Part shown: positions 154 through 46,446 of the stretch, piece by piece
Layout of the letters: each line of letters starts with the position of its first letter
Position numbering within the stretch: position 1 is the first letter of the stretch
NCBI GenBank assembly: GCA_964367145.1
Contig: CAYIWJ010000003.1
Coordinates: 1 to 51,366 of the forward strand
DNA: 51,366 nucleotides
From: an uncultured Candidatus Saccharibacteria bacterium
Lineage (GTDB): Bacteria; Patescibacteriota; Minisyncoccia; UBA6257; 1-14-0-10-40-38
Direction: 5' to 3'
Notes under the pieces: generated by a model
Database searches by the model: none
Seen by the model: the letters and a program-made list of their open reading frames with translations, nothing else
What the model was told of the DNA's origin: nothing
Made by a program: the position numbers and the translations under genes

Positions 154-567
154 ATGGCAAATATTTTGCAAGAGATCGCAAGTGAGCTGGCGAAGGATGA
201 TGGGGCGATTTTTGATCCAATTGCTAGCACCCAGCCTGGCGAGACAGAAGTTGGCGTTCTAAATGACGAACTCAAGAGGCTCTATAGCCTTTGGAAGGCC
301 AACGAGAAGATGGCTTCGCAGATTAAGCTCGACCTACGATATTCTCAAGTAGCTGAAGTGAAGAGGATCGAAATATTGGGACGGCAGATCCAGAAAGTTG
401 TTATTTTAGAAGCATCTTTTTGGGTTAGCGTGAAAGACAAGTTCAATCTTTGGGGTAAAGAAGCGGTTGGCGTGCGTAGGGGGTGGATGGTCGTCTGGGG
501 GAAAGCCGAGGATGGGATCAGGACAACCATGCGCGACATAGAGAAGCTCTTCGGGGAGCAAATCTAA
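154..567 (+). CDS. hypothetical protein
   Basis: ORF 109..567. ATG at 154 is preceded by AAGGA about 10 nt upstream. It has its own promoter and terminator. No motif recognised. Confidence 0.5.
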   Translation: MANILQEIASELAKDDGAIFDPIASTQPGETEVGVLNDELKRLYSLWKANEKMASQIKLDLRYSQVAEVKRIEILGRQIQKVVILEASFWVSVKDKFNLWGKEAVGVRRGWMVVWGKAEDGIRTTMRDIEKLFGEQI

Positions 568-636
568 AGACAAGAGCCAAAAAAGCCGAGTCAAACTAGG
601 CTGGTACGAAGTAAGTTGAATTAGACAAAAAACACC

Positions 637-665
637 CCGCGCAAAACCATTGCGCGGTTTTTTTA
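637..665 (+). terminator. rho-independent terminator
   Basis: Stem CCGCGCAA/TTGCGCGG followed by a T-run. Confidence 0.7.
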
Positions 666-766
666 TTGCCCAAGATGCCGCAGTAACCAAAAACCCAGAA
701 AAACAAGTTGTTTAATGTGAGTCGCGCCACTAACAGATGGCAAGCACCTTAACAAAGGAGTTACGA

Positions 767-5134: not shown

Positions 5135-5179
5135 GTGGTAAAGTGATTTTAATTAAAAAGTAAGCTAAAAATCGTGATT

Positions 5180-6211
5180 ATGGAAAAAATAGTCAAAACA
5201 TTACTTCAGGGGCTCGACGCTCGCGCCAAAGACATCTTAACCGGTCGGTTTGGTCTTGACGGCAATGCCAGTTTAACCCTCGCCGAACTTGGCGAAAAGT
5301 ATAATATTACCCGCGAACGAGTTCGTCAGATTGAGGCTTTTGCCCTTGGTCAATCGGCGAAAAAAATGGACGAATCTGGCGCCTCCGCCTTAACGGAAAA
5401 AGCCCTGCGCTTCGTCAAAGAAATGGGTGGAGCAGTACACGACAACGCCCTTGTCGCCGAGTTGGTTAAAACCACCCCCAAAGCCATGGCCGATGCCAAA
5501 TCTGGCAATGCGGTTCGTTTTGTTATGGAACTCTCCGGAAAACTTATCGCGCATCGCGGTGATGACGACTATCATCCGTTTTGGTATCTAAACGAAGAAT
5601 CTAAAAAGAAGGCGGAAAATTTTGTTGGCCAACTGGTTAAGGCCGTCCGCAATTCCAAAGATGCTATGTTGCGCGGCGCGCAATACGACGGCGTTTTCGC
5701 GGAAGCCGTTAAAGCCTCCAAGATTAGCGAACCGGTCGGCAAAGTTTACATGGGTATCTCCCGCAAGTTTATGACCAGTCCCTTTGGCGATTTTGGTCTA
5801 GCGGAATGGGCGGAAATCAACCCCAAGACCGCGCGCGAGTGGGCTTACATCGTGGTTAAGAAGCAAAACAAGCCGCTTCACTTTACCGATATTGTCGCCG
5901 GAATTAATACCTATCGCAAAAATAAAATCGCTAACGTCCAAACCGTGCACAACGAGTTGATTAAAGATTCTCGCTTTGTTTTGGTTGGCCGCGGCATGTA
6001 CGGCTTGCAGGAGTTTGGCATCTTGCCCGGAACCGCGCGCGAAGTCATCGCTCATTTTATTAAAGAGAAAGGGCCCTTGCGCTCCGCCGATGTAGTTAAG
6101 TTCGTTCTTCAAAAACGCTTCTTTAAAGAGGGAACGATTATGATTAACCTGCAAAATAAGAAGTATTTCAAAAACCTTGGGAATGGAACCTACGATCTCC
6201 GCGAAGTTTAG
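5180..6211 (+). CDS. sigma-70 region-4-like HTH fused to a HARE-HTH (RpoE/delta-like) domain protein
   Basis: N-terminus LDARAKDILTGRFGLDG..TLAELGEKYNITRERVRQIEAFAL matches sigma70 region 4.2. C-terminus PLHFTDIV...VHNELIKDSRFVLVGRGMYGLQEF matches the HARE-HTH pattern. No region-2 motif seen. Confidence 0.6.
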   Translation: MEKIVKTLLQGLDARAKDILTGRFGLDGNASLTLAELGEKYNITRERVRQIEAFALGQSAKKMDESGASALTEKALRFVKEMGGAVHDNALVAELVKTTPKAMADAKSGNAVRFVMELSGKLIAHRGDDDYHPFWYLNEESKKKAENFVGQLVKAVRNSKDAMLRGAQYDGVFAEAVKASKISEPVGKVYMGISRKFMTSPFGDFGLAEWAEINPKTAREWAYIVVKKQNKPLHFTDIVAGINTYRKNKIANVQTVHNELIKDSRFVLVGRGMYGLQEFGILPGTAREVIAHFIKEKGPLRSADVVKFVLQKRFFKEGTIMINLQNKKYFKNLGNGTYDLREV

Positions 6212-6332
6212 CTTTTCATAATCGCAGTTAGTTCAAAAACCTTTTTCTTTGGAAATTTAATCGGCTATCAACATCCGAAGGACTTTTCCCATTTGCGAAA
6301 TACGGGCTTTCCCGTCATACTTTAAAAAAATA

Positions 6333-7586
6333 ATGTTCCAAGAAATCCTCGGCGGAGTCTGGCAGGCAGTTAGCAAGGCTTTTTCGGTCAGTTGGTGGCT
6401 TATCATTCCGATTATTTTAGGCAGTGTTCTTTGGGAGCGTTTTCGCTACTACACCCTCATCAACTTCTTCAAAAAGATGAAGTGGGTAACTCTCGAAATT
6501 CGCATCCCACAAATTATCGAAAAAACTCCCAAGGCCATGGAGCAGGTTTTTGCCGCGCTCCACGCGAGTTACGTTTTTAACATTAAATGGACCGAAAAAA
6601 ACTTTAAAGGCAAAAGTCAGGAGTGGTATTCCATTGAAATGGTCGGGATTGCCGGAGGGATTTATTTTTATATCCGAACCTCCGAAAATCACCGCAACCT
6701 GGTTGAGTCCGCCATCTACGCCCAATATCCCGACGCCGAAATCAGTGAAGTGGACGACTATGTAAGCAATTTGCCGAGTATCATTCCCAACAAGACTTAC
6801 GATCTCTGGGGAACCGATCTGATTCTAGGGCGCGATGACGGCTTTCCGATTCGCACCTATCCGGCTTTTGAAGAAAAAAAGGACGAAGCCTTGCTTGACC
6901 CCATGGCCGGTATCGCCGAGGTCATGTCTCGTCTCAAAGAAGGCGAGATGATTCTTCTGCAATTTTTAATCCGACCGACTAACGACGACTGGAAGAAGAA
7001 AGCCGAAGAAACTCGCGATAAAGTAATGGGTCGAAAGAAACCCAAAAAAGCCGGTTTTGCCGATGATGCTAAGGATCTAATCGGTAGCTTTTTCAAAGGC
7101 CCATTTGCCGAAGTTGAATTTAAGAAAAAAGACGAAAAGCCAATGACCGAAAATCTGATGATGGGTAAAACTCCGGGCGAAAAAGAAATTATTGAAGGTA
7201 TTGAGAAAAAAATGGCCAAGCTCGCTTTTGATACGCGCATTCGATTTATCTACATTGACCGCCGCGAAAGTTTTAGTCGTGGTTATATCTCGGCGGTACT
7301 AGGCGCCTTCCGCCAGTATGACACGCGAGACATGAACTACTTCCGCCCCGATATTGACACCATGACCAAGGGCAAATTTCCTTTCAAAGCCCGCAAGGCC
7401 GAAGCCAAAAAACGCAAAATCTTCAAAGCCTATCGCTACCGCATGATGGGCCGAAAAAATTCCATCATGAACGTGGAAGAGTTGGCGACCATTTTCCACT
7501 TTCCGGCTATCGCGGTCAAATCTCCGATGTTGCGCCGCTTAAGCTCGCGCAAAGGCGAACCACCGGCCGGACTGCCAATGGAGTAA
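6333..7586 (+). CDS. membrane-anchored N-module of a split VirD4/TraD-like translocase (uncharacterised domain)
   Basis: N-terminal TM helix. Colinear with residues ~1-330 of fused ORF 35232..37532 (for example EELATIFHFPAIAVKSP vs DELASFFHFPTSGFQVAKIASVKS). Confidence 0.7.
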   Translation: MFQEILGGVWQAVSKAFSVSWWLIIPIILGSVLWERFRYYTLINFFKKMKWVTLEIRIPQIIEKTPKAMEQVFAALHASYVFNIKWTEKNFKGKSQEWYSIEMVGIAGGIYFYIRTSENHRNLVESAIYAQYPDAEISEVDDYVSNLPSIIPNKTYDLWGTDLILGRDDGFPIRTYPAFEEKKDEALLDPMAGIAEVMSRLKEGEMILLQFLIRPTNDDWKKKAEETRDKVMGRKKPKKAGFADDAKDLIGSFFKGPFAEVEFKKKDEKPMTENLMMGKTPGEKEIIEGIEKKMAKLAFDTRIRFIYIDRRESFSRGYISAVLGAFRQYDTRDMNYFRPDIDTMTKGKFPFKARKAEAKKRKIFKAYRYRMMGRKNSIMNVEELATIFHFPAIAVKSPMLRRLSSRKGEPPAGLPME

Positions 7587-7641
7587 ACTGTATTTCAGTT
7601 TTGGAAAATGCTACTATTATTGCTGGCTTTTGTCCGGCGCT

Positions 7642-9294
7642 ATGAAAAAAGACGTCAACATTTTCGGTAAGGTTAATTTCCGCAACGAGGTTAAAAAATT
7701 CGGCATTAAAGCCGATGATCGCCGCCGCCATATGTATATCATTGGCAAAACCGGCATGGGCAAAACGACCATTTTGGAAAACATGGTCTATAGCGACATT
7801 CAAGCCGGTCACGGCGTTGGCGTGGTTGATCCTCACGGCGAGTTTGCCGAGAAAATCTTAGATTTTATTCCCGAACATCGGCTGGATGATGTTGTCTATT
7901 TCAATCCCTCGGACATTGATCACCCGATCGGCTTTAATCCCATTGAGCAAGTCGGCAACGAGTTCCGCCACTTAATCGCCTCAAGTATCATGGGCGTTTT
8001 CAAAAAAATCTGGCCGGATGTCTGGTCATCCCGCATGGAATATATTTTAAACAACGCTCTTTTAGCTCTTTTAGAATATCCCGATTCCACCTTGCTTGGG
8101 ATTATGCGTCTCTTAAACGATAAGGAATACCGCCGCCGGATCGTGGAAAATCTACAGGATCCGGTCATTAAGAGTTTCTGGGTCAATGAATTTTCCCGTT
8201 ATTCGCAAAAGTTTGAAACCGAAGCCACCGCCGCCATTCAAAACAAAATCGGGCAGTTTATTTCCAATCCCTTGATTCGCAACATCTTGGGGCAAAGTCA
8301 GTCGGCGATTAGTATGCGCAAAATTATGGACGAAAAGAAAATCCTCATCGTCAACTTGTCCAAAGGCAAGATGGGGGAGGATAACTCGGCTTTACTCGGC
8401 TCTATGATCATCACCCGACTCCAGCTGGCCGCTATGTCGCGCGTGGATATTCCAGAAAAGGATCGCAAAGACTTTTATCTCTACGTTGACGAATTTCAGA
8501 ACTTCGCCACCGATTCTTTTGCCAACATCTTGTCCGAGGCCAGGAAATATCGCCTTTGTTTGATTTTGGCCCATCAATATATTAGCCAACTGACCCATGA
8601 CGGCAACACCAAAGTCCGTGATGCGGTCTTTGGCAACGTCGGCACAATCGTCACCTTCCGCATTGGCGCCGAAGACGCCGAGTTTCTGGAAAAAGAATTT
8701 TTACCCGATTTCACCGCCAACGATCTGGTCAATCTCCCTAAATATAATACTTACATCAAACTTCTTATAGACGGCATGGCCTCCCGTCCATTTTCCGCCG
8801 AGATGCTCCCGCCTTTTCCGAGTATGGAAAAAACCTTCAAGGAAACGCTTATCAAAAATTCCCGAACCAAATACGGCACGCCACGCCAAGTAGTGGAAAA
8901 AAACATCGCCGGAGAATGGATGGAAGATATGAACGCCATGGACGAAAGAATGGGTCGCCGCTCCGAACCGTCGCCTCCAGAGCGCGGTTTTAACAATAGC
9001 CCAAGTCGCTCGCCGATGAGTGGCAACGCTCCAAGTAGCCGTCCGCCAATCCGTCAACCTTCCCAGCCGCCGGCAAACAGGCCCATGCCGATACAGCCCA
9101 TGAATCGTCGCCCAGACAACCGAGAAGCGCCACCGGCACCTCCGCTCGAAAAACGCGAAAAAAAAGAAGTGAACTTGTCTGATCTGCGAAAATCCATTGA
9201 CGAGGCGCTCAAGAAAAACAATCAAGAAATCATCGAAGCCGAAAAAACTCGAGTAAGTTTTCTCAAAGACCCGGAGCTGGAAGAAGAAGTTTAG
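7642..9294 (+). CDS. VirD4/TraD/TraG-like (type IV coupling-protein-like) P-loop NTPase with a Pro/Arg/Ser-rich C-terminal tail
   Basis: Walker A GKTGMGKTT, VVDPHGEF, Walker B LYVDEFQNF and ILAHQYISQL. Paralog of the C-terminal half of 35232..37532. Confidence 0.75.
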   Translation: MKKDVNIFGKVNFRNEVKKFGIKADDRRRHMYIIGKTGMGKTTILENMVYSDIQAGHGVGVVDPHGEFAEKILDFIPEHRLDDVVYFNPSDIDHPIGFNPIEQVGNEFRHLIASSIMGVFKKIWPDVWSSRMEYILNNALLALLEYPDSTLLGIMRLLNDKEYRRRIVENLQDPVIKSFWVNEFSRYSQKFETEATAAIQNKIGQFISNPLIRNILGQSQSAISMRKIMDEKKILIVNLSKGKMGEDNSALLGSMIITRLQLAAMSRVDIPEKDRKDFYLYVDEFQNFATDSFANILSEARKYRLCLILAHQYISQLTHDGNTKVRDAVFGNVGTIVTFRIGAEDAEFLEKEFLPDFTANDLVNLPKYNTYIKLLIDGMASRPFSAEMLPPFPSMEKTFKETLIKNSRTKYGTPRQVVEKNIAGEWMEDMNAMDERMGRRSEPSPPERGFNNSPSRSPMSGNAPSSRPPIRQPSQPPANRPMPIQPMNRRPDNREAPPAPPLEKREKKEVNLSDLRKSIDEALKKNNQEIIEAEKTRVSFLKDPELEEEV

Positions 9295-18676: not shown

Positions 18677-18720
18677 GGGTTTTTTTATTGGGCTTTTTTC
18701 GACGACTCATCAATTTTTTT

Positions 18721-18749
18721 TTGGCTTCCCATAATTCAAAGAATAAGAT
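18721..18749 (+). promoter_or_regulatory. promoter TTGGCT-N17-TAAGAT
   Basis: Hexamers at 18721-18726 and 18744-18749. Confidence 0.4.
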
Positions 18750-18789
18750 AATCTTTTAACAATCAAACCAAGCGTTAAACAAGAAGCGT

Positions 18790-20064: not shown

Positions 20065-20072
20065 ATCAAACT

Positions 20073-20795: not shown

Positions 20796-20798
20796 TCC

Positions 20799-21368: not shown

Positions 21369-21374
21369 CTGCTC

Positions 21375-23355: not shown

Positions 23356-23463
23356 AACCGCTATCCACAAGTCACCAACCAAGAGATTTAGAAGTGTTAT
23401 ACTAATCAAAGAATCCAAATTCGGATCAAAACCGTAAGAGTTGCTCCTTTTGAAAAATAACCT

Positions 23464-23988: not shown

Positions 23989-23994
23989 AAAAAT

Positions 23995-24645: not shown

Positions 24646-24664
24646 AAAACTTTTACCATCAAGT

Positions 24665-24698
24665 AAAAATAGATTCCATTTTCGGAATCTATTTTTTT
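24665..24698. terminator. rho-independent terminator (A-run/T-run flanked)
   Basis: Stem AATAGATTCC/GGAATCTATT plus a T-run. Confidence 0.75.
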
Positions 24699-24719
24699 AT
24701 GAAACGCGAACGTTAGAAA

Positions 24720-24728
24720 TGCTATAAT
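24720..24728 (+). promoter_or_regulatory. extended -10 element TGcTATAAT
   Basis: Located upstream of the amidohydrolase-ftsW-murG block. Confidence 0.4.
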
Positions 24729-24834
24729 ATTAAGACTTAGCGGAATAAGCCGTGCCTTGTAAATACAGCGTTGAGCGCCACAGCCCGCGAAAAGAAATGC
24801 GCCAAACACACAAACCCTGCAAAAACCAATCATT

Positions 24835-27440: not shown

Positions 27441-27447
27441 AAACTAA

Positions 27448-28596: not shown

Positions 28597-28639
28597 CCAT
28601 CAGCTGGAAATTCAGCTTCTAAAAAGGTAGACTACCCCT

Positions 28640-30112: not shown

Positions 30113-30121
30113 CTAATTAAC

Positions 30122-31405: not shown

Positions 31406-31718
31406 CCGATTAACATCGACCAACAAGCTAAACTGATAACGGCCTAGATTGCGCCAAAGACCAACAGCGGTAAACGTTCGGCAGAGTAGAAGAGCTTATA
31501 TTTCTAGCCAAATTAAAAGCGGTCAACAGACTCGCGCGGAGTCTAAAAAGATATTTTCCAAAAAATCTTATTTACCAAAATAACAAGACGAATTAAAGTA
31601 GTCGGCACGAAGAATAAACGCCGAAAAATAAACAGTAGGGCGATGAGAGGAGAATCGCCGAACCTCTAAGCCCGTACTTTTTTCTAAGAAATCAGAAGGG
31701 GAGCCATTCTAATATCTA

Positions 31719-31752
31719 TATCTGTCGCAAAATATATCTTGTGCGACAGATA
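31719..31752. promoter_or_regulatory. perfect 11-bp inverted repeat TATCTGTCGCA-N12-TGCGACAGATA (operator or hairpin)
   Basis: Seen directly in the sequence. No T-run follows. It lies ~70 nt upstream of the -10 of the nuclease gene. Confidence 0.45.
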
Positions 31753-31819
31753 GCCTACAAGACAAAGCCCCTCCCCACCCGACCTAAACCTACAACCCAA
31801 ACCCGAGTATCTCTCGGTG

Positions 31820-31828
31820 TGTTATAAT
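31820..31828 (+). promoter_or_regulatory. extended -10 element TGtTATAAT
   Basis: Lies 14 nt upstream of ATG 31843 with no Shine-Dalgarno sequence in between. Confidence 0.5.
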
Positions 31829-31842
31829 TTCCTACACTACGC

Positions 31843-32613
31843 ATGGCCTTCCCCTCCCTTGATCCTCAAGAATTTAAAGCCAGCCACGGTTACGATATCG
31901 AAGACACTTGGTATCCCCGCGTGACCAAAATTGTGGACATCAAAGCCAAGCCAGCCCTCTATCGTTATTATGGCGATGCGCCGAGTTTTGCCGCCGCCAA
32001 GGCCGCCACCGAGCGTTCCGCCGAGGAAGGTACCTTAATTCATACCGTTGCCGAAAAAATTTTTATCGGCGAGCCAACCGAAATTCCCGAAGCGGTTAAA
32101 CCGGCCATCACCGCCTTACAGGTATTTTTAGCTGAAAGAAAAATTCAAGTTCAACCGGAACATGTTGAAATGCGTATTTTGAATAAAGAGCATCGCTATG
32201 CCGGCACAATCGATACTTTAGCCACTATTGACGGAAAGTTCGGAGTATTGGATATTAAAACATCGCAAAGTATTTACCGCGACTATAATTTACAAACTGC
32301 CGCCTATGTCGGCGCCTTAGTCAAAGAATTTCCGCATCTTATAACGCGCTGGATTCTTCGCATAGATCAAATCAGAACCTGTGATGCTTGTTCGGCTACC
32401 CTTCGACCCAAAGGCGGTCAGGTTAAAATCCGGCGTCGCCCGGGTTCAGTCCCCTGCTATATCAGCCAACATGTTTGGGGACCGCTTAAGGGAGTCATCG
32501 AATTAAAAGAAATTCCCTCATCCGATGATGACTTCGGAGCTTTCCTAGCTGCCAAGCGCCTGTGGGAATGGGAAAATCAAGAACTTCTCCAAAAAATCGG
32601 ATATTTTGTCTAA
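31843..32613 (+). CDS. PD-(D/E)XK nuclease family protein (RecB/Cas4-like fold)
   Basis: GTLIH, YAGTIDTL, VLDIKTS (D..D-x-K) and QTAAY (QxxxY) motifs, plus a C-terminal Cys-containing segment. Confidence 0.7.
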   Translation: MAFPSLDPQEFKASHGYDIEDTWYPRVTKIVDIKAKPALYRYYGDAPSFAAAKAATERSAEEGTLIHTVAEKIFIGEPTEIPEAVKPAITALQVFLAERKIQVQPEHVEMRILNKEHRYAGTIDTLATIDGKFGVLDIKTSQSIYRDYNLQTAAYVGALVKEFPHLITRWILRIDQIRTCDACSATLRPKGGQVKIRRRPGSVPCYISQHVWGPLKGVIELKEIPSSDDDFGAFLAAKRLWEWENQELLQKIGYFV

Positions 32614-32666
32614 AAGAAAAAAGCAGGCTTCAAGTGCTATAATGGATATGTCTACTGGTATTTGCA

Positions 32667-33032
32667 TTGGCACACGTACCTTTAAAACCCAAGGATAACC
32701 AAGTGGAAACAACCCGCTTCTCATTGCTAACCGACTATATTTTGTTTGATCATGACCGCCGACCGACTGCTCTTCGGGAAGATGATGTTCTATTATTGCG
32801 ACTGGTTAGAAATGGCAAAAAAATAGAATCCGTCATTCACTTTATTCGCGCCGACCATTTTTTAAGACTCAATAGGCCAGGTGGCCCCGATGGCCTCTGC
32901 ATACCAAAGTTGGACGCCAGCTCCTTCCATGGCCTCGTTAAGTTAATCGCCATGAGTCTCGGCGGCACCGCTCGCCGTCTTCCTACCAAGGATGAGCACG
33001 TCGCCGGCTATAAAATATGCCGAACGGACTAA
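32667..33032 (+). CDS. hypothetical protein (TTG start, uncertain)
   Basis: ORF only. TGcTATAAT lies at 32635-32643 upstream and a terminator-like hairpin lies just downstream. Confidence 0.35.
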   Translation: MAHVPLKPKDNQVETTRFSLLTDYILFDHDRRPTALREDDVLLLRLVRNGKKIESVIHFIRADHFLRLNRPGGPDGLCIPKLDASSFHGLVKLIAMSLGGTARRLPTKDEHVAGYKICRTD

Positions 33033-33069
33033 ATACGACAGTTTTTAGCTAGAACTGGCGTATTTTTTT
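33033..33069 (+). terminator. rho-independent terminator (imperfect stem)
   Basis: Stem ATACGACAGTT/AACTGGCGTAT with 2 mismatches, followed by T7. Confidence 0.5.
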
Positions 33070-33188
33070 ACCGGTAAACCTACGGCTCTGCATCTGGCCT
33101 AAAAAAGATTAGATATATCGCTAGCACCTTAGTGTTGCAGGGCGACCTGCTCAAAACAAGTCAATGATCACGAAGAAACGGCGCAGGC

Positions 33189-33218
33189 TTGACATACTTA
33201 AGAATAGAATGTTAAGAT
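33189..33218 (+). promoter_or_regulatory. promoter TTGACA-N18-TAAGAT
   Basis: Same spacing and the same AGAATA and TTAAGATAAA blocks as the promoter at 55..84. Confidence 0.5.
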
Positions 33219-33335
33219 AAAACCCGTTAGTTTAGCTCTTTTAAAACCGAAAACCGGCTTTTAGAAACACTGCGTTTCCGCCTGATTTTGCCATAAGAGA
33301 GCTTGATTTCCACTCACACCGGAAGGGATAGACAA

Positions 33336-34100
33336 ATGCCCAAGCAAGATTTGAATCCTTGGGAACGGCTGATGAAACTCATCGGCGCCATCGTCGCGAT
33401 GGTGCAAGATGGAAGCCGAGATCTGAAAGAGGTCATGGAGTTCGCCGACTTCTTCCAGATCATCAAGGACAAGCCGAGCTTCTTCACCGACTTCAAGGCC
33501 TTCCTCGCCTCGCGCAAGGAACCCGCCACAACCCCGCAGAGCGAGCTCTCTCTCGCCCTCGACCCCCGCTCCCTCTGGACACAGATCTACGCCAAGCTCG
33601 GCATTACGGCCGACTTCACGGACGTCCCGATTCCCGCAAAGCCCGAAGGCGACTACTGGCCCATTGGTGTCTTCAAGGGCATCCTCATGAACCAGATCGT
33701 CCTTGGCCTCCAGAAACACTTCAGTGTTTACCTCTACACGGAAGATCTTGACCGTTCGGTTACCCAAAACGACCGAACAGCCGAGAAGTCCTACTTCATC
33801 TGGGTCAAGGCAACTCAAGAAGCTGATCCCGAGCTCAAGAACCTGTCAGCAAACCAGCTCAAGAAGAAAGAGATCAAGGGCATCACGCTTCTTGAGCGAC
33901 TGCTCCTTGAAGCCCTCTACTTCCTCGTTGTGAAACCCGGACAGCATCTCGACAAAGAGAATGTTACTCTTTGCTCTGGTTCTCGGGTCTCCGGCGGTGA
34001 TGTGCCGTGCGTGGGCTGGGATGGCGACGGGGTCGACGTGGATTGGTACGGTCCCGACCGTCGCTTCGTCGGCACCCGTGGTCGAGCAGTAGTTTCGTGA
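33336..34100 (+). CDS. hypothetical protein, GC3-rich; C-terminal ~185 aa paralogous to 18098..18676
   Basis: ATG 33336 follows GGAAGGG. Codons are dominated by C/G-ending forms (aag, ttc, atc, ctc, gac), unlike neighbouring genes. Many shadow ORFs on both strands. Confidence 0.65.
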   Translation: MPKQDLNPWERLMKLIGAIVAMVQDGSRDLKEVMEFADFFQIIKDKPSFFTDFKAFLASRKEPATTPQSELSLALDPRSLWTQIYAKLGITADFTDVPIPAKPEGDYWPIGVFKGILMNQIVLGLQKHFSVYLYTEDLDRSVTQNDRTAEKSYFIWVKATQEADPELKNLSANQLKKKEIKGITLLERLLLEALYFLVVKPGQHLDKENVTLCSGSRVSGGDVPCVGWDGDGVDVDWYGPDRRFVGTRGRAVVS

Positions 34101-34133
34101 ATTAAGCCCTTCGTTCTTTTCCCTTCAGCCCTT

Positions 34134-34169
34134 CCCCTTGTTGCTTGCAAGCAACAAGGGGATTTTTTT
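34134..34169 (+). terminator. rho-independent terminator
   Basis: 28-nt palindrome CCCCTTGTTGCTTGCAAGCAACAAGGGG followed by a T-run. Confidence 0.8.
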
Positions 34170-34231: not shown

Positions 34232-35218
34232 TTACTTTTGCCCTGGCGTGCCCACCAAGTTCGGCGGGGTCTGCCCTTCAAGCGCCGCCACAATGTTCCG
34301 AGCCGCCACCTCTCCCATTTTTTGCCGCGTCTCCTCGGTCGCCGAAGCAATATGCGGCGTTACGATAATTTTATCCAAATTTTTAAACCCCAAATCCATC
34401 AACGGCTCGTTTTCAAAAACATCAATCGCCGCTCCGCCAATAATCCCCTTTTCTAGCGCTTGCTCCAAGGCGTGCTCATCAATCACCGGTCCACGGGAGG
34501 TATTGATCAGATAAGCTGTTTTTTTCATCTTAGCCAAGCTGTCGGCATTTATCAGATGCTTGGTTGAGGGTAAAAGCGGCACATGAATGGATACAAAATC
34601 CGCCTCGCGGAGCAAATCGTCCAAATTCGGTCGGAACTCCGCGCTAAACTCTTTTTCAAAATCCTCGTTCCGCTTAACATCGTAATAAAGGGCTCGCATA
34701 TCAAAACCCTTAACTGCGTGCTTGGCGACCAAAGCCCCGATTCTTCCCAATCCCACGATGCCTAAAGTTGAGTGAGCCACGTCCGCCCCCAAAAGCAACA
34801 TTGGCCCCCAGCCCTTGTACTTTCCGTCGCGCATAAATTGATCCGCCTCCGCTATCCGGTGCGCGATGGCGAGTATCAGAGCAAAAGTGTGTTCGGCAAC
34901 CGTCTCGTTTAAAACATCCGGAGTGTTGGTGATTAAGATATTCCGTTCCCGAGCGGCGACTAAATCAATGTTATCAAAGCCCACCGCGTAATTGGCAAAA
35001 ATTTTGACTTGCGAACCGGCGGCGGCAAAAACCTCCTTATCAATTTTATCGGTCAAAAGACACAAAACAGCATCATAATTTTTACCCTCCAGAAACATTA
35101 TAAGCTCCTCTCGGCGCAGAACCCGATCTTCGGGATTGACCACCACTTCATAGCCCTGTTTTTTTAGCAAGACTAAACCGCGATCGGGAATCAGTCTAGT
35201 CACAAATACTTTCTTCAT
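34232..35218 (-). CDS. D-isomer-specific 2-hydroxyacid dehydrogenase (glyoxylate/hydroxypyruvate reductase-like)
   Basis: GIVGLGRIGALVAKH NAD-binding fold, SRGPVIDE, DVFENEP and TPHIAS motifs. Confidence 0.85.
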   Translation of the reverse strand: MKKVFVTRLIPDRGLVLLKKQGYEVVVNPEDRVLRREELIMFLEGKNYDAVLCLLTDKIDKEVFAAAGSQVKIFANYAVGFDNIDLVAARERNILITNTPDVLNETVAEHTFALILAIAHRIAEADQFMRDGKYKGWGPMLLLGADVAHSTLGIVGLGRIGALVAKHAVKGFDMRALYYDVKRNEDFEKEFSAEFRPNLDDLLREADFVSIHVPLLPSTKHLINADSLAKMKKTAYLINTSRGPVIDEHALEQALEKGIIGGAAIDVFENEPLMDLGFKNLDKIIVTPHIASATEETRQKMGEVAARNIVAALEGQTPPNLVGTPGQK

Positions 35219-35231
35219 AATGAAATAAATT

Positions 35232-37532
35232 TTAAGTTCTCAAACGCTGCAAAATATCATTCTCAACTTCTCGTCGTTCTCGCCCAAACTTAGCGCGAGA
35301 TGCCTCTCTAGAGCGAGTGGCGAGCCCTGCATCTGGCCGGGAGACAGCCGCCGTCTTAATGTTGAAAGGCCTAGCGGTTAATCCGTTAATCAACAGCTTA
35401 ACATAGGCATGATAGTTATCGATGTTGATAAGATCATTCTTGTCGAAGACCGGCTCAAACTGGCGTACCAAAAACTCGGCGTCTTCCGCTCCAACTCTAA
35501 ACACCACCATCGACCCGACATTACCAAACACCGCGTCGCGAATTTTTTCCGTCAGCTGGGCTATAAACTGGTGTGCCACCGTTAAATTCAAACCATATTT
35601 TCGCGCTTCAGATAAAATTGTGGCGATAGAATCAGTAGAAAAGTTCTGAAACTCATCAATGTAAAGATTAAAAGGAACTCGGTCTACCTGGGGTGTGTCC
35701 ACGCGCGACAAGGCCGCCATCAAAATCTTACCCACCACCACCATACCGATAAGTCCGGCATTGATGTCGCCAATCTTGCCCTTGGAAAGATTGCACAACA
35801 GTATCTTTCGACTATCCATAATCTCACGAAAACGAAAGGCGGATTGCACTTGGCCGATAATCGGCCGCACGTAATCATTGGCAATAAAGTTGCTGAATTT
35901 AGAAGTTACATAAGGAGTGATATTTTGGAGCGACGCCTCTCCTCCCGCCTTAACCGCCTCCTTTTCCCAAAAATCAATCACCGTAGGATTTGTCGCCCGC
36001 GCGAGTTTCTTGGCGCGAAAAGCCGCGTCCGAAAACAGACGTGGAATCTCCACCAAAGTTGCCGGATTTTCTGGATCATCCATCAGGAGCAAAAGCGCGT
36101 TGCGCATATATTGCTCAAACATCGGCCCCATCGTTTCGGAGGAAAAAAGTTTGTTAAAAATTCCCTGGATCTCGTTGACGATAAAAGTTTTTTGCTCGGG
36201 TTTGGTCGGGTCATTTTCCAGCATATTTAATCCCAAAGGACGCTCAATATCCCCCGGATCAAAAAGAATCACGTCCGAAAGCCGCTCAGCTGGAATAAGT
36301 CCCAATAGTGATTCAATTAGATCGCCGTGCGGATCAACGACCGCCACGCCCTTTCCGCTTTGAATGTCTTGCAGGGCCATCTTGACCATCAGATTCGATT
36401 TTCCGGTGCCGGTTTGACCAATCAAATAAATATGTCTTCCGCGATCAGAGTCCCCAATGCGAATTGGCTGAACTTGTCCGGCAAAAGTGCTTTCTCCGAT
36501 TAAAACTCCATCGGTTGGCAACTCAATCGGCGCCGCCGCCTCGCGTGATTTAACCGAGGCGATTTTGGCGACTTGAAACCCACTGGTTGGAAAATGAAAA
36601 AAACTGGCCAATTCATCCGTGTTCAAAATCATCTCATTCGCCGAACCAAAAGAACGAAAAATAAAGTCTTCAATTGTTCGCCGCGGATTTTTTGGCGTAA
36701 CAACTTTAACTTGGTTGCCGTTTGCCAGTTCAAATTGCCCACAAGCGACTAAGGCTCCGTTTAGAAGTTCCTCGGCTCGTAAATCATTTGGCGCAGTCGC
36801 CACCAACCTAACCGCTACTTTATATAGCGTTTGGGAAAGTTTATTTTGCACAAGTCTGATTTTTCCCTGATCAAGTGGCTCCGGCGTTTGCAAAACCTGG
36901 TCACCCTTTTCCTTCGCCTGGGGTGGCTTTTTTATCGTCTCCAAATATCGCATGCCACTCTTCTTTGTTCCCGAGGAGGCTCCCTCTACCACCACCTGCA
37001 AAGCCAACCCCTCGCCGACGGCGCGCAGATTGGCAAAAGCCGAAAGGAAAGACAAAAATAGGTCAGCCTTTGCTTCCGTGTAAGTCCGTAAAGGCAGGGC
37101 AAAATGAGATTTTTGCTCCAAGGTCGCCACCCTTACCTTACCCGAACCCCCGAATATGGTGTAATCATCCGCATGGCTCACCTGGGCTCCGGGCCAAAGC
37201 GCTCGGATATATTTCGCCACCCCCTCTTCGGCGCTAGTCGGTACGGCGCAATAGAACTTAATCTCCTCACCGATATTATGCACCGCGAGCTCCAACGCGA
37301 ACGGCTTCTTCATTCCCAAAAGTGAATTAAAAAACTGACCAGAAACCGCGATCTCACGCAGTGGATCTTTAGCCTCACCACTCCCCGCCGGATCGCGGGG
37401 TAAACGCACCAAAAGCAGGCGCAAATTAAGATCCAGAAGCAATTTTTTTCGTCGGCGCGAACTCCACCAAAAATATCCGCCAGTTAAAACCACGACTACA
37501 GCCAATCCAAGATAAACAAAAATCTGTGGCAT
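35232..37532 (-). CDS. fused membrane N-module plus VirD4/TraD-like P-loop NTPase
   Basis: N-terminal TM helix. Walker A GQTGTGKSN, VVDPHGD, Walker B LYIDEFQNF and TVAHQFIAQL. Colinear with the gene pair 6333..7586 + 7642..9294. Confidence 0.75.
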   Translation of the reverse strand: MPQIFVYLGLAVVVVLTGGYFWWSSRRRKKLLLDLNLRLLLVRLPRDPAGSGEAKDPLREIAVSGQFFNSLLGMKKPFALELAVHNIGEEIKFYCAVPTSAEEGVAKYIRALWPGAQVSHADDYTIFGGSGKVRVATLEQKSHFALPLRTYTEAKADLFLSFLSAFANLRAVGEGLALQVVVEGASSGTKKSGMRYLETIKKPPQAKEKGDQVLQTPEPLDQGKIRLVQNKLSQTLYKVAVRLVATAPNDLRAEELLNGALVACGQFELANGNQVKVVTPKNPRRTIEDFIFRSFGSANEMILNTDELASFFHFPTSGFQVAKIASVKSREAAAPIELPTDGVLIGESTFAGQVQPIRIGDSDRGRHIYLIGQTGTGKSNLMVKMALQDIQSGKGVAVVDPHGDLIESLLGLIPAERLSDVILFDPGDIERPLGLNMLENDPTKPEQKTFIVNEIQGIFNKLFSSETMGPMFEQYMRNALLLLMDDPENPATLVEIPRLFSDAAFRAKKLARATNPTVIDFWEKEAVKAGGEASLQNITPYVTSKFSNFIANDYVRPIIGQVQSAFRFREIMDSRKILLCNLSKGKIGDINAGLIGMVVVGKILMAALSRVDTPQVDRVPFNLYIDEFQNFSTDSIATILSEARKYGLNLTVAHQFIAQLTEKIRDAVFGNVGSMVVFRVGAEDAEFLVRQFEPVFDKNDLINIDNYHAYVKLLINGLTARPFNIKTAAVSRPDAGLATRSREASRAKFGRERREVENDILQRLRT

Positions 37533-37928
37533 CTATTTCAATAGCCCGCGTTTTTTAAACTCCTCATAAAACGTATCGGTGATAGCGTCATGAAATCCAT
37601 CTAACACCAACGGTGGTGATTTTTTAGCTTGCTTTATAGCCGAAGCCAATCCTTTATGCAGAGCCGAATCAATCAATTCCTCAACCATCAGCCGCGTGGC
37701 GGGATCTTCCGAAGCTAAATATAGAGGCAAGGCCGATGGCTTTGCATTCGCCGAAGTTTGACTTCCGGCGGAGTTGGAAGCCGGTGGCAAAGGACTTAGA
37801 CGTTCGCCAATGACTTCGCGCAAAACTTCGCGGTCGGATTTTTTCTCTAGGCTCCGTCCATTAATTTCAATTTTCAAATCTTGAATATCACGCTCAAGCG
37901 CCGAATGCCGTTCCGATGGTGCTTCCAT
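37533..37928 (-). CDS. hypothetical small protein, abutting the downstream translocase gene
   Basis: 131-aa ORF. Its stop codon directly abuts ATG 37532. A TGgTATACT element lies 7 nt upstream of its own ATG. Confidence 0.55.
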   Translation of the reverse strand: MEAPSERHSALERDIQDLKIEINGRSLEKKSDREVLREVIGERLSPLPPASNSAGSQTSANAKPSALPLYLASEDPATRLMVEELIDSALHKGLASAIKQAKKSPPLVLDGFHDAITDTFYEEFKKRGLLK

Positions 37929-37935
37929 AGAGAAA

Positions 37936-37944
37936 AGTATACCA
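37936..37944 (-). promoter_or_regulatory. extended -10 element TGgTATACT (minus strand)
   Basis: Lies 7 nt upstream of ATG 37928, which implies a leaderless or near-leaderless mRNA. Confidence 0.45.
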
Positions 37945-38006
37945 CAAAGAATCGCTTAGTAGCTTCAAATTACCAAAACCCGCTCCATCCGCTAAGCCTC
38001 ATTAAC

Positions 38007-39002
38007 CTACCCGTGCTTAACCACCATCACGTCGCCGTCTTTCACTACATATTCCTTGCCTTCGGTTCGCAAAACCCCCTTTTGTCTTGCCTGCGCCCAA
38101 CTTCCGGCTTTAATTAAATCCTCCCAAAAAACCACCTCGGCGCGGATAAACCTTTTTTCAAAATCGCTGTGAATCGCTCCGGCTGCCTGTGGCGCTGTTT
38201 CGCCGCGCTTTATGGTCCAGGCGCGAGTCTCATCCTCTCCGGTAGTCAGAAAACTTATCAAATCAAGCGTCCGGTATGCCGCCGTAATCAACTCCGGTAG
38301 ACTTTCCGTATCATTTAAATTCGCGGCCACATATTCGGCGCCAAGTGAAGCGATTTTCTGTTTGAGCTCGCTAGTCACCTCTCCCTCGCTTCCGTTCAAA
38401 AGAAAAATTTGTTTCTTGGTGGTTAATAATTGCATCTCCCGCGCCACTTGTTCATCGGCAAATTCGCTGATTAGCAATCCTTGATTCAACTTCACGAGCA
38501 TCTTTTTTAAAGTCTCTAAATCCTTTTGTGCCTGTTTTTGTCCGGTTTTTGCCTCGCCCTCGGCTCGCTTTAATCTCTTTTCCACCAAATCCAAATCTTT
38601 AAAAATCAATTCAGCGTTAATAATTTCAATATCCCGAATCGGATTTAGCGTATTTTCTACATGCGTAATTTCTATACTCTCAAAAATTCGAACCACATGC
38701 GTTATTGCCGTTACCTCTTTAATGTGCGACAAAAAAGCGTTGCCTAAGCCCTCGCCCTTGGAAGCGCCACGCACCAGTCCGGCAATATCAAAAAACTCCA
38801 TCACCGCCGGCACTGTTTTTTTAGAGTTAGAAAGTTTTGCAAGAAGCGCCACTCGCGCATCGGGCACGACCACCACCCCAACATTCGGATCAATGGTACA
38901 AAAAGGATAGTTGGCGATCTCAACCGGCTTGGCGGTCAAGATTTTAAAAAGCGTTGACTTGCCCACATTCGGCAAGCCAACTATGCCCATCGCGAGTTTC
39001 AT
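38007..39002 (-). CDS. ychF: redox-regulated ATPase YchF (Obg-like)
   Basis: GIVGLPNVGKSTLF, the DIAGLV..AS.GEGLGN pattern and a C-terminal TGS-like end (YVVKDGDVMVVKH). Confidence 0.85.
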   Translation of the reverse strand: MKLAMGIVGLPNVGKSTLFKILTAKPVEIANYPFCTIDPNVGVVVVPDARVALLAKLSNSKKTVPAVMEFFDIAGLVRGASKGEGLGNAFLSHIKEVTAITHVVRIFESIEITHVENTLNPIRDIEIINAELIFKDLDLVEKRLKRAEGEAKTGQKQAQKDLETLKKMLVKLNQGLLISEFADEQVAREMQLLTTKKQIFLLNGSEGEVTSELKQKIASLGAEYVAANLNDTESLPELITAAYRTLDLISFLTTGEDETRAWTIKRGETAPQAAGAIHSDFEKRFIRAEVVFWEDLIKAGSWAQARQKGVLRTEGKEYVVKDGDVMVVKHG

Positions 39003-39042
39003 GACTCAGGGAGAATAGCAAAAAGCGATAGACTTGGCAAAA

Positions 39043-41631
39043 TTACCTCCTCTTTCGCTTATCAATCTCTTCCTTGATCAAATCTACAAGTTCGGGCGCA
39101 AAATGTTTAGCGGTTTGACCTCCGGGAGCTTTATAATCAAATGACATTCCAGGTTCTAACGCCAAAAATTCACCGGCTATTGTGTTGATAAGCGTTTTGC
39201 TCACCGCGGTCTCTCGTTGAATTTCTCCCGCCGTTTTCCAGCCCACAGGAGCTGGTTCCATTGACGAGACTTCTTCGGTAATTATTCTGATCAAGCGGGG
39301 TGAGAGAAACTCAAAAGGGCGAGACTTTTCGTAGCGCATAACTTTGAACCATTCAGGATTTTTCTCCCTGTAGCTCGAGGCTATTCGACTAACTACTTTA
39401 TCACTAACTCCTAGGCTTTTTGCTAATACTTGAGTTGGCTGCCATTCTGCGGGCGCAATCTTGATTTCTTTGTCTTCTTGCTCGATGGTTTTTATTAATT
39501 GAGGTGAGATATGTTCGAATAGTCGACCCATTGCATCGTGAGACGTCCGAAACCATTCAGGATGGTCTTTTCTGTGTTGCTCAACTTTATTTTTTAAGCC
39601 TAATGCACTTCTTCCCATTTTTTCAGCTAGTTTATTGCGGGTAATCCAGCCAACAGGAGCCTCGATAGCGTTTTTTTGTTTTTCTTCAAGCAGTCTTATA
39701 AGCTCAGGGCTAAGGTGTTCAGCGCGACTGCCGTTCCTACCACGATATTCACGGAACCATTCCGGATGAAATTCGCGATGAGCATCAGTGGCCCTATCGA
39801 CAGTCGTAAAATTGCTACCGATCCTGTCTGCTAATCCTTTGCGCGTCTCCCAGCCTAAAGGCGCGTCTTCGAGTGAAAGTACCTCTTTTTTTATAAGATC
39901 GACCAGCGGAGGAGAAAAATGCTCGATTTTTCTTCCGGTATGTATCTGAAATGTACCGAACCACTCGGGGTTAGTAACCCGTTTAGCATCTACTATTTTG
40001 AGAATTGGTTTTTTGCTAACCCCTAACTCTCTTTTCAGAGATTCCAATGTCATCCATCCGGGTAGAGGCATTGCCCTCCCCCTACTTTCCCTTGTTTCAG
40101 AGACAATCCTAAAAATTTCTTGTGTATCAGTAATAATCTGTAGTCCTTCAATTTGTATGCCAGTGAGCCGCGCAGTTCCAGCCTGCTCTGATTGTCTAGT
40201 AATATCCCGAATCTCTTCTCTGTCAGCGTATGGTCTATCCGATTTTCGAATTATTCCAGGTGATCCGACAATTTCCGCGAAAGTTATAGGGCCAGGAGTA
40301 TCTTCATTTGTTTTTCTATCCAGAAATTCAACAATATGGGCGAACTTATCAGGGTTATCTTCGTCAAGACGAAGCACGCGTCCCGCGCGTTGCTCTGCGA
40401 TAACCCTAGATAGCGTGGGTCGTAGATTTAAACATACGCTTGCTCGAGGTTCGTCAAAGCCTTCAATCAACTTGTCGGCGGTGCATAAAACTTTAATTTC
40501 GCCTCGTTCATAGCGCTCAAGAATTTTTGCTGACTCTTCGCTGTCTGTTTGGCCGGTTATTACGGCTGATGGAACGTTACTTTCATTAAATAATTTTGAA
40601 ACTCGCTTTGCGTGCTCAATGCCCGCGCAAAATGCAATCCCTAATTTCTTATCGAAAGCATCTTTGTAAAGCTTTACCGCCGCCATATTGCGGCTTTGAA
40701 TGTTGATTGCTTGTTCTAATTCTTTTTCTGAATAATCTGTTCCACTGATTTTTACTTTACTAATATCAACGTCTGTTCGCGCTAGCGTTACAGAAAAAGA
40801 GGAAAGCAGGCACTCTTCTACTGCCTCCGGGATAGACATTGAATAAATTTCTGTATTGAGAAGATTGCGAACCTCCTTATCTTCAGAAAATATTGGCGTT
40901 GCAGTAAAGCCTAGCTTGATGGCGTTTGTAAATTTACTTACCGAGCCTGTTCGCAAATCACTTAAGCTCCGATGCGCTTCATCAAGGATTAAAAGACCAA
41001 TTTCTTCGGGTTTAATGTTTTTTCTTTCAATTTCATTCACTAAAGATGCATAAGTAACTACGGTAACATTTTTCCCGAATTCTTTAGCTGTTCCAGAAAC
41101 TTTTCCAACTTTAACGCCTGGGGCAAATCTTTCTAGTTTTTTGATAGTTTGGTCTACCAGGGTAAGAGTCGGCACAGCGATTACTGTTTTTACTCCAATT
41201 GCTTCAAGAAACTCTGTGAAAAGAACGGTTTTGCCGGCACCTGTAGGAAGCTTAACATAGCCCTCGTTACCACCATTTTCAAGATAGTCGCGCATCGCTT
41301 CAAAGACATTTATCTGTTCTTCGCGAAGGGTGCGCTTATTCTCAAACGCTTTGTGCTCCCCAATGTACGCATCTAAGTTGTTCAGTCTCCGCAACCATTC
41401 GCGCATACTACCAATCTCTTCAAGGGAAATTGGCTCACCAGAGCGCTGGGAGCGAAGAGTTTGAAGATAGATTCCGTATCTGCGGGGATATTTTTCCTTT
41501 AACTTCTCCACCGACATCCCCGATGTATCCTCTCGTGATGAAGATTGGGGAAGTTCTTTGCCGAGAATGGACTCAGTAGCTCTTACCTGTTCTTCCAGCT
41601 CACTAGGCTCCTTGTATCGGAACTGCTCCAT
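39043..41631 (-). CDS. SF2 DEAD/DEAH-box (type III restriction Res-like) helicase with five C-terminal tandem repeats
   Basis: Motif I LPTGAGKT, motif II LDEAH, motif III TATP and motif VI QRAGRVLR. The C-terminal third consists of repeats. Confidence 0.8.
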   Translation of the reverse strand: MEQFRYKEPSELEEQVRATESILGKELPQSSSREDTSGMSVEKLKEKYPRRYGIYLQTLRSQRSGEPISLEEIGSMREWLRRLNNLDAYIGEHKAFENKRTLREEQINVFEAMRDYLENGGNEGYVKLPTGAGKTVLFTEFLEAIGVKTVIAVPTLTLVDQTIKKLERFAPGVKVGKVSGTAKEFGKNVTVVTYASLVNEIERKNIKPEEIGLLILDEAHRSLSDLRTGSVSKFTNAIKLGFTATPIFSEDKEVRNLLNTEIYSMSIPEAVEECLLSSFSVTLARTDVDISKVKISGTDYSEKELEQAINIQSRNMAAVKLYKDAFDKKLGIAFCAGIEHAKRVSKLFNESNVPSAVITGQTDSEESAKILERYERGEIKVLCTADKLIEGFDEPRASVCLNLRPTLSRVIAEQRAGRVLRLDEDNPDKFAHIVEFLDRKTNEDTPGPITFAEIVGSPGIIRKSDRPYADREEIRDITRQSEQAGTARLTGIQIEGLQIITDTQEIFRIVSETRESRGRAMPLPGWMTLESLKRELGVSKKPILKIVDAKRVTNPEWFGTFQIHTGRKIEHFSPPLVDLIKKEVLSLEDAPLGWETRKGLADRIGSNFTTVDRATDAHREFHPEWFREYRGRNGSRAEHLSPELIRLLEEKQKNAIEAPVGWITRNKLAEKMGRSALGLKNKVEQHRKDHPEWFRTSHDAMGRLFEHISPQLIKTIEQEDKEIKIAPAEWQPTQVLAKSLGVSDKVVSRIASSYREKNPEWFKVMRYEKSRPFEFLSPRLIRIITEEVSSMEPAPVGWKTAGEIQRETAVSKTLINTIAGEFLALEPGMSFDYKAPGGQTAKHFAPELVDLIKEEIDKRKRR
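39061..40071 (-). repeat. five tandem ~64-69-aa protein repeats (P.GW.T...LA...G.S...........PEWF..........EH.SP.L...I..E)
   Basis: Helicase residues ~521-857. The PEWF motif occurs four times, with a degenerate fifth unit. Confidence 0.8.
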
Positions 41632-41750
41632 ATGTGTCTAATTATGCCAAAAAATTCAGCTTAAATAAAGCTACTGTAGCGATCCATTGCGCAACGGAAC
41701 TTTTGCTTCTCATTCGCTATTTACTGAGTTTGCTTTGCTATACTTATTCA

Positions 41751-46365: not shown

Positions 46366-46446
46366 AGGAATAAATTATAAACTATCGCCAAGCCAAAAAA
46401 CCTCAACCAATCAGTCATCCCCGCGCAAAAATAAGACAATTCGCCT

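Follow-up and report, generated by a model that had tools for sequence, protein, structure and literature searches.

A conserved gene pair encoding a small partner protein and a type IV coupling protein-like ATPase in Paceibacteria/Parcubacteria

We analyzed a 51,366-nucleotide (nt) stretch of DNA from an uncultured Candidatus Saccharibacteria bacterium (GenBank assembly GCA_964367145.1, contig CAYIWJ010000003.1, positions 1 to 51,366 of the forward strand), referred to here as the window. On its minus strand, five open reading frames (ORFs) follow one another in the order superfamily 2 (SF2) helicase, YchF, a small protein of 131 amino acids (aa), a 766-aa ATPase resembling type IV coupling proteins (T4CPs), and a D-2-hydroxyacid dehydrogenase. 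The genes for the small protein, hereafter the partner, and for the ATPase stay adjacent, or fused, throughout a class of ultra-small candidate phyla radiation (CPR) bacteria, the Paceibacteria/Parcubacteria. Judged from these sequence comparisons, the functional unit is likely to be this conserved two-gene module of partner and T4CP-like ATPase, and not the five genes together. The pair and its signals are as follows:

37936..37944, minus strand: extended -10 box TGgTATACT, 7 nt before the partner ATG, with no Shine-Dalgarno motif between
37533..37928, minus strand: ORF of the partner, 131 aa, without a Pfam family
37530..37535, minus strand: TAGATG junction of partner stop (TAG) and ATPase start (ATG), directly adjoining and in one frame; the ATPase has neither a promoter nor a Shine-Dalgarno motif of its own here
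35232..37532, minus strand: ORF of the T4CP-like ATPase, 766 aa, matching Pfam TrwB/T4SS-DNA_transf/DUF87

Conservation of the partner-ATPase pair

Species-representative genomes were scanned with an alignment of ATPase homologs, which yielded 80 further loci and 86 related loci overall. Two of these, L001 and L002, are the same sequence, and counts of neighboring gene families use 83 loci. Homologs of the partner were found with a hidden Markov model (HMM) built from the first matches, for which 74 non-redundant loci were informative and 9 more had too little upstream sequence. Unrestricted iteration of the HMM drew in the ATPase by way of fusion proteins, and the counts reported here come from a rerun with a length filter and domain coordinates.

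A preliminary description of this DNA had taken the small ORF and the ATPase for a tight, coupled pair and had suggested checking their adjacency across relatives. The pair is indeed kept. In 64 of the 74 informative loci, the gene immediately preceding the orthologous ATPase on its strand encodes a partner homolog, and in six loci, all from one clade, the homolog is fused in frame to the ATPase N-terminus. A seventh apparent fusion, in locus L049, was not counted as reliable, because it crosses masked sequence (X residues) and its ATPase groups outside the fused clade. Where the two genes are adjacent, the gap falls between -10 and +20 nt in 33 of the 64 loci, eight of them at -4 (4-nt overlaps), and the gaps show no frame preference. 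The partner is not next to the ATPase in three loci (L078, L086, and L081). The ATPases of L078 (7902..10454; labeled Uhrbacteria) and L086 carry a 30-aa extension ahead of the transmembrane helix, and L086 has a different 176-aa ORF (196..726) that overlaps the ATPase start by 4 nt, contains an LDSFY motif, and may be a very divergent partner.

The nearest relative has a partner 76% identical and an ATPase 85% identical to those of the window, in the gene order PGK, YchF, small ORF, ATPase, dehydrogenase. At about 45% identity, relatives still have the pair, with the dehydrogenase gone, and in one of them (L003) an opposite-strand gene stands between YchF and the pair. When neighboring genes were clustered, no conserved family emerged apart from the pair itself; the next commonest was a PMT_2 glycosyltransferase, present in 26 of the 83 loci, and GtrA, DUF5663, and DnaX were further frequent families. 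None of virB3, virB6, or virB8 was among the recurrent neighbor families of these 83 loci. In 13 related loci (for example, L030 6810..7130, L038 2704..3009, and L041 7103..7393), the partner is immediately preceded by a co-directional DUF5663 gene of about 100 aa, which is absent from the window.

The window also contains a second copy of the ATPase, divided between two genes:

6333..7586, plus strand: protein with a transmembrane helix and a DUF8128-like domain, 417 aa
7630..9294, plus strand: split-paralog ATPase, 554 aa, 43% identical to the ATPase domain of the 766-aa protein and lacking a transmembrane helix

Using the HMM, we found no partner gene for this split paralog and no second partner copy anywhere in the window, in agreement with the earlier statement that the small protein has no counterpart next to the split copy. 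The ATPase domains of paired ATPases are 52-94% identical to that of the 766-aa protein, versus 37-48% to that of the split paralog. As every paired ATPase is thus closer to the 766-aa copy, the partner appears to belong with one specific paralog. A 345-aa protein with Sigma70_r4 and HARE-HTH domains precedes the split paralog (window 5174..9294) and is not a partner homolog.

The two proteins and their expression

The partner consists of an N-terminal helix pair, a disordered linker rich in Ser, Ala, and Pro (aa 43-63), and a C-terminal three-helix bundle (aa 76-126). Its AlphaFold2 (AF2) model places the helices at residues 6-26 and 29-43, disorder at 43-63, and the bundle at 76-126, with a mean predicted local distance difference test score (pLDDT) of 67 overall and about 88 for the C-terminal domain. 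In the alignment, conserved residues of the C-terminal domain are L85 and, within an LDxFHD motif, L109, D110, H113, and D114. Database homologs are 76-45% identical to the partner; a profile search returned 49 proteins, none with a Pfam domain or an informative name, and the 49 aligned sequences are 14-76% identical. Across loci, the partner (14-45% identity) and the DUF8128 domain of the ATPase (only 25-40%) vary more than the ATPase domain (52-72%). No hydrophobic segment is present (maximum Kyte-Doolittle hydropathy over 19 residues [KD19], 0.85), and the partner is predicted to be a cytoplasmic helical protein. Searches of Pfam, NCBIfam, and PADLOC gave no match, which accords with the preliminary view of a 131-aa protein with a Ser/Ala/Pro-rich linker and no recognizable motif. 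The partner family appears to be undescribed.

The ATPase begins with a transmembrane helix, continues with a DUF8128 domain and a T4CP/HerA-type P-loop ATPase, and ends in a basic C-terminal tail. Its parts are as follows:

37461..37520, minus strand: single N-terminal transmembrane helix, aa 5-24 (maximum KD19 2.05 at residue 4), followed by RRRKK
36543..37430, minus strand: DUF8128 domain, aa 35-330, whose alpha/beta fold resembles that of the VirB4/TrwK N-terminal domain
35313..36470, minus strand: T4CP-like ATPase domain with P-loop motifs, aa 355-740
36396..36419, minus strand: Walker A motif GQTGTGKS, aa 372-379
35652..35666, minus strand: Walker B-like motif LYIDE, aa 623-627

Sequence matches to T4CP families were marginal: TrwB_AAD_bind scored 27.6 bits (cut-off, 20.5), T4SS-DNA_transf 21.0 (20.1), and TraG-D_C 25.5 (22), and Pfam DUF87 was also matched just above its gathering score. 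A sequence search of the PDB gave TrwB (E 1e-6) and then DotL as the only meaningful matches, both over the P-loop region only. Among NCBIfam T4CP equivalogs, the best was SXT_TraD, at 46 bits versus a cut-off of 366, which places the ATPase outside the named T4CP equivalogs (TraD, CD1115, TrbC); all other scores were lower still, and matches to TraD, CD1115, and CedD were likewise all far below cut-off. No FtsK family, as would mark an FtsK/SpoIIIE protein, was among its Pfam or NCBIfam matches. Homologs number more than 4137 at E<1e-10, all from Patescibacteria where named, and their NCBI names include "DUF87 domain-containing protein". The ATPase domain is 94% identical in the nearest relative and 52-72% identical among more distant orthologs. 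By these matches, the ATPase is classed as the Paceibacteria/Parcubacteria version of the orphan VirD4-type T4CP homologs already counted in Patescibacteria.

The N-terminal half has a different affinity. The database protein P0006, which is 100% identical to the ATPase, carries PF26449.1 (DUF8128), as do all 120 homologs listed; the label is the precomputed annotation of P0006, PF26449 being absent from the Pfam copy searched. An AF2 model of residues 1-344 reached a pLDDT of 85 and a predicted template modeling score (pTM) of 0.82. In a Foldseek search with this model, the top 14 PDB matches were chains of R388 type IV secretion entries containing TrwK/VirB4 (E 1e-7 to 5e-5, probability 1.00, query TM-score [TMq] 0.44-0.50); the next fold class, chlorite dismutase/HemQ, reached a TMq of about 0.2. 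VirB4 families were absent from the Pfam and NCBIfam matches of the 766-aa protein, and searching the PDB by sequence returned no VirB4 chain at E values up to 10. As the fold of the N-domain matches VirB4 and the sequence of the ATPase domain is T4CP-like, the protein can be read as a VirB4-type N-domain joined to a T4CP-type motor. The former label "VirD4-like translocase" stands for the ATPase domain; it does not hold for the N-terminal half, with its fold resembling the VirB4 N-domain.

A transmembrane helix is present in every unfused ortholog with a complete N-terminus, and no transmembrane-like segment was seen in the fused proteins. Proteins of the fused clade carry the partner domain in the position otherwise taken by the transmembrane helix, the point of joining being about 25 residues ahead of the first DUF8128 strand.

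Expression of the pair was considered together with the rest of the ORF string, in which the gaps from helicase to dehydrogenase are 40, 78, 0, and 13 nt. The remaining ORFs and their promoter-like sites are as follows:

41641..41649, minus strand: helicase -10 box TGgCATAAT, 9 nt before the helicase ATG
39043..41631, minus strand: ORF of the SF2 helicase, 862 aa, Pfam ResIII/Helicase_C
39012..39040, minus strand: promoter-like site TTGCCA-17-TGcTATTCT, 9 nt before the YchF ATG
38007..39002, minus strand: ORF of YchF, 331 aa, Pfam YchF
35229..35234, minus strand: possible dehydrogenase -10 box TAAAAT, 10 nt before the ATG and overlapping the ATPase stop codon
34232..35218, minus strand: ORF of the D-2-hydroxyacid dehydrogenase (glyoxylate-reductase-like), 328 aa, Pfam 2-Hacid_dh

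In the ORF list and the sequence, the five minus-strand ORFs, their gap sizes, the partner stop directly abutting the ATPase ATG, and TGgTATACT with its 7-nt spacing to the small-ORF ATG are all as the preliminary description placed them, and Pfam agrees with its family labels for the four larger ORFs while giving none for the 131-aa ORF. The description was mistaken in one respect: TGgTATACT is not the only internal promoter signal, as -10-like boxes also precede the helicase, YchF, and dehydrogenase ATGs. The ATPase alone in the string has no promoter signal, which fits its dependence on the small-ORF transcript.

The position of the partner promoter is conserved. The nearest relative has TGgTATAAT in the equivalent place, and in 63 related loci TANNNT occurred 39 times at -15..-11 before the partner ATG, versus roughly 2-3 times per position further upstream; many of these sites read TGnTATAAT, and a -10 box 5-10 nt ahead of the partner ATG recurs across loci. 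Promoter-like sites in the region are not enriched over shuffles (7 found versus 10.3 expected), so the argument rests on position and conservation and not on counts. With its -10 box 7 nt before the ATG and no Shine-Dalgarno motif, the bicistronic partner-ATPase mRNA is probably leaderless. Many other window genes likewise lack a Shine-Dalgarno motif and show a -10-like box, frequently of the form TGnTAnnnT, that ends 5-10 nt ahead of the start codon (further sites at 46366..46385 and 6334..6350); dozens of Parcubacteria genomes repeat this layout in front of the partner gene. Since this layout is frequent and few genes have a Shine-Dalgarno motif, leaderless transcripts look common and may be the rule in this genome. 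A single in-frame TAG separates partner and ATPase, and read-through would give a fusion like the natural ones.

Possible roles of the pair and its neighbors

In the mechanism we propose, partner and ATPase would be transcribed together from the extended -10 promoter, on what is probably a leaderless mRNA, and translation would be coupled across TAGATG. The ATPase would probably act as a ring-shaped, membrane-attached motor driven by nucleoside triphosphates, with the partner docked at its N-terminal side, close to the membrane, as a stoichiometric subunit or an adaptor. Docking on that side is suggested because the fused partner domain takes the place of the transmembrane helix. The motor would then probably hand a polymer substrate, either DNA or unfolded protein, to a membrane channel.

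Several observations weigh against this scheme. The N-terminal half of the partner was modeled by AF2 at low confidence, and a Foldseek search of the PDB with the partner fold returned nothing below E=1. The TM-scores of the VirB4 N-domain match (0.44-0.50) are moderate. Gaps between partner and ATPase exceed 100 nt in ten loci, so coupling is not universal, and the fusion is probably one evolutionary event and not several independent ones. Among the recurrent neighbor families within 8 kb, the only families checked for this purpose, there was no type IV secretion system (T4SS), relaxase, or pilus component. Finally, according to Quinonero-Coronel et al. 2025 (PMC12102498), the T4CP homolog of Ca. 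S. epibionticum was not essential and its T4SS genes were, which weakens a link to the T4SS.

Even so, we see a nearly even chance that the pair serves the chromosomal T4SS of Patescibacteria, encoded elsewhere, and docks to it through the VirB4-like N-domain. PMC12102498 counts 5,713 VirD4-type T4CP homologs, of which only 148 lie near virB4, in 2,918 of the 3,035 Patescibacteria genomes surveyed, together with VirB4 in 2,417 genomes and relaxases in 103. The paper also names TrsD, which resembles the VirB4 N-domain, as the most abundant T4SS component in Patescibacteria, and notes that in ordinary systems, too, linkage between a T4CP gene and virB4 is often lacking.

The same figures can be read in favor of a core membrane motor independent of the T4SS, in which an exapted T4CP-like ATPase with a VirB4-like N-domain works with the partner in another essential process, for instance in DNA uptake for nucleotide scavenging, in pumping of chromosomal or cell-division DNA, or in export of a surface polymer or protein. 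We regard this as a tentative possibility. T4CP homologs occur in more genomes than VirB4, with 97% of them unlinked to virB4, and exaptation is raised by the authors of PMC12102498 themselves. The ATPase domain is very strongly conserved across the class (52-72% identity), the context is always housekeeping with no recurrent T4SS-like neighbor family, the envelope glycosyltransferases PMT_2 and GtrA are frequent neighbors, and there are weak NCBIfam matches to the archaeal DNA-import ATPases CedD and CedB. However, T4CP genes often lack linkage to virB4 in ordinary systems as well, incomplete metagenome-assembled genomes can account for part of the difference in counts, the VirB4-like N-domain is itself a docking module of T4SS type, and no candidate substrate or channel is linked to the pair.

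With the same tentativeness, we put forward that the pair might be a hybrid motor that combines a VirB4-like N-domain and a T4CP-like ATPase with a dedicated, hitherto undescribed subunit, and that was exapted in these reduced genomes to serve an essential process in DNA handling or at the envelope.

A defense or toxin-type HerA-like module, made up of the ATPase and a small regulator, is very improbable. The ATPase domain does match PADLOC models for mad8 (E 8e-16) and HerA, but these matches cover the generic P-loop domain only, the partner has no match in the defense library, and no nuclease or other effector is conserved beside the pair. Defense genes are usually patchy, whereas virtually all Paceibacteria genomes sampled have the pair, vertically conserved at 52-72% identity; we rejected this reading on the uniform vertical conservation of the ATPase gene.

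The preliminary description had gone further and joined all five genes into an apparatus for DNA export, import, or processing, with the helicase working alongside the translocase. The genes are co-directional with short gaps, and helicase and ATPase both belong to families of nucleic-acid motors. Co-direction by itself carries little weight, because long co-directional runs are normal in the window, where about 17 plus-strand genes stand in an unbroken row from 18098 to 34100. The helicase is found in 0 of the 86 related loci. It has its own -10 box and lies within an indel that the nearest relative lacks: the helicase-bearing stretch 39003..41732 (2730 nt, gene plus promoter) corresponds, in a DNA alignment, to 178 nt between PGK and YchF in that relative. 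The surroundings of three helicase homologs elsewhere are unrelated and include neither YchF nor the ATPase; one of these homologs has a small-terminase fragment as its neighbor, in a stretch with many small ORFs. The helicase is thus a lineage-specific indel outside the module. YchF and the dehydrogenase are housekeeping genes, syntenic with the pair in close relatives only, and are not part of the module either; YchF lies within 8 kb of the pair in just 11 loci, and the dehydrogenase is downstream of the ATPase in 3 of 86 (L001 and L002, which are the same sequence, and L066). The description itself had named a lack of conserved adjacency in relatives as grounds for abandoning the five-gene apparatus; as helicase adjacency is not conserved, the proposal falls on those grounds, and we give it hardly any weight. 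Its removal clears away a false lead.

The C-terminal part of the helicase (aa ~520-862) contains a repeat of about 68 aa in five tandem copies, which are 32-38% identical and follow the pattern PxGW..LA..GVS..PEWF..EHxSPxLI; this substantiates the earlier remark that it is repeat-bearing. No tandem repeats were found at the DNA level in the helicase gene, so the protein repeats are old. At E<1e-30 the helicase family comprises 1012 cluster representatives, which differ in length and in the number of repeats; the one member with a name comes from Peregrinibacteria. The helicase core is XPB/RadD-like, with XPBII/Rad25 as the best matches in the PDB, and the NCBIfam scores are 87 bits for RadD (cut-off, 720) and 76 for XPB (cut-off, 610); the protein is accordingly assigned by sequence to the SF2 superfamily and not to the named RadD or XPB families. 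A peptide-pattern scan for relatives gave none in viral contigs and one distant match (23% identity) in metagenome contigs, and a phage protein search matched the generic helicase core only, at about 29% identity, and never the repeats. YchF scored 388 bits against TIGR00092 (cut-off, 279) and is a member of that family.

Least credible of all is that the small ORF is a conserved 5' leader or regulatory region and not a gene, for although it has no known domain and a low-complexity linker, its conservation is at the protein level, with a defined and confidently modeled C-terminal domain and invariant residues over the 49 sequences, 49 database proteins match its profile, and one clade has it joined in frame to the ATPase.

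The window otherwise looks like an ordinary chromosome of CPR/Patescibacteria type, with genes for SecDF, EF-P, MnmA, ComEC, DnaX, ScpA, FtsW, MurG, GltX, PGK, and L9; scans of the window for tRNAs and Rfam families gave no match. Other features near the string are as follows:

34133..34162, no strand assigned: 13-bp GC-rich hairpin between convergent genes, about 70 nt past the dehydrogenase stop, with a T-run on the plus strand only; likely a terminator
33261..34100: plus-strand 265-aa ORF without a family, overlapped by a minus-strand 185-aa ORF
31843..32613, plus strand: PD-(D/E)XK/Cas4-like gene, about 2 kb beyond the ATPase and on the opposite strand
L001 14557..15435, L003 14619..15389, and L006 9216..10001: counterparts of the PD-(D/E)XK/Cas4-like gene in related loci

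The stretch 33261..34100 is variable, as DNA similarity to the nearest relative stops at the dehydrogenase stop. The PD-(D/E)XK nuclease-family gene, identified by Pfam, lies nearby, contrary to the earlier statement that no nuclease genes are present. Its position is kept in the four nearest relatives, and in the contig of the nearest relative a phage-integrase gene comes next after it.

Relation to known systems

T4CP-like ATPases are present at about two per Patescibacteria genome and are unlinked to the T4SS that is essential in Saccharibacteria. The pair offers handles on this little-known family: one of the two paralogs consistently accompanied by a specific small protein (and fused to it in one clade), a VirB4-type N-terminal fold, and a conserved, probably leaderless promoter. 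As far as we found, the ATPase family is already catalogued and uncharacterized, and what is new is the partner family, the fusion, the VirB4-like fold of DUF8128, and the leaderless operon. DUF8128 (PF26449) is a domain of unknown function, a label shared by the identical database protein and the listed homologs, and we found no paper mentioning it. The sections and passages of PMC12102498 that we consulted are likewise silent on the N-domain, on split or fused forms, on the partner and its fusion, and on a leaderless operon, and a 2025 review adds nothing here.

The closest described group is that of the orphan VirD4-type T4CP homologs. As presented in PMC12102498, they match T4CP/VirD4 profiles, are chromosomal, and almost never lie near virB4 or a relaxase, and we take the 766-aa ATPase to be of the same family. 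They number about two per genome, which the two ATPase copies of the window fit.

With VirD4, TrwB, TraD, and DotL, the 766-aa ATPase shares the P-loop domain, a Walker A region matching TrwB and DotL, a TraG-D_C region, and an N-terminal membrane anchor. DotL uses the small cytoplasmic adaptors IcmS and IcmW, and the ATPase could use a small adaptor in the same way. T4CPs usually have two transmembrane helices, whereas the ATPase has one, with an insert of about 300 aa resembling the VirB4 N-domain between that helix and the motor. Unlike T4CPs, it also shows no relaxase or T4SS linkage among the recurrent neighbor families of the 83 loci.

The likeness to VirB4/TrwK lies in the N-terminal alpha/beta fold, in the related ATPase domain, and in a small gene directly upstream, as in virB3-virB4; TrsD, a stand-alone protein resembling the VirB4 N-domain, is a further likeness to the N-domain of the ATPase. 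In contrast to VirB4, the 766-aa protein has no sequence match to VirB4 families, and its motor is closer to those of T4CPs. VirB3-VirB4 fusion proteins are known from some conjugative systems, according to PMC12102498. We considered the partner as a VirB3 and rejected it: the position fits, but the partner has neither a hydrophobic segment (KD19 0.85) nor a family match, and without a transmembrane helix it is not VirB3-like. The fusion, moreover, loses a membrane anchor rather than adding one, and if the hybrid-motor reading is true, the clade with the partner in place of the anchor would have a soluble form of the same machine.

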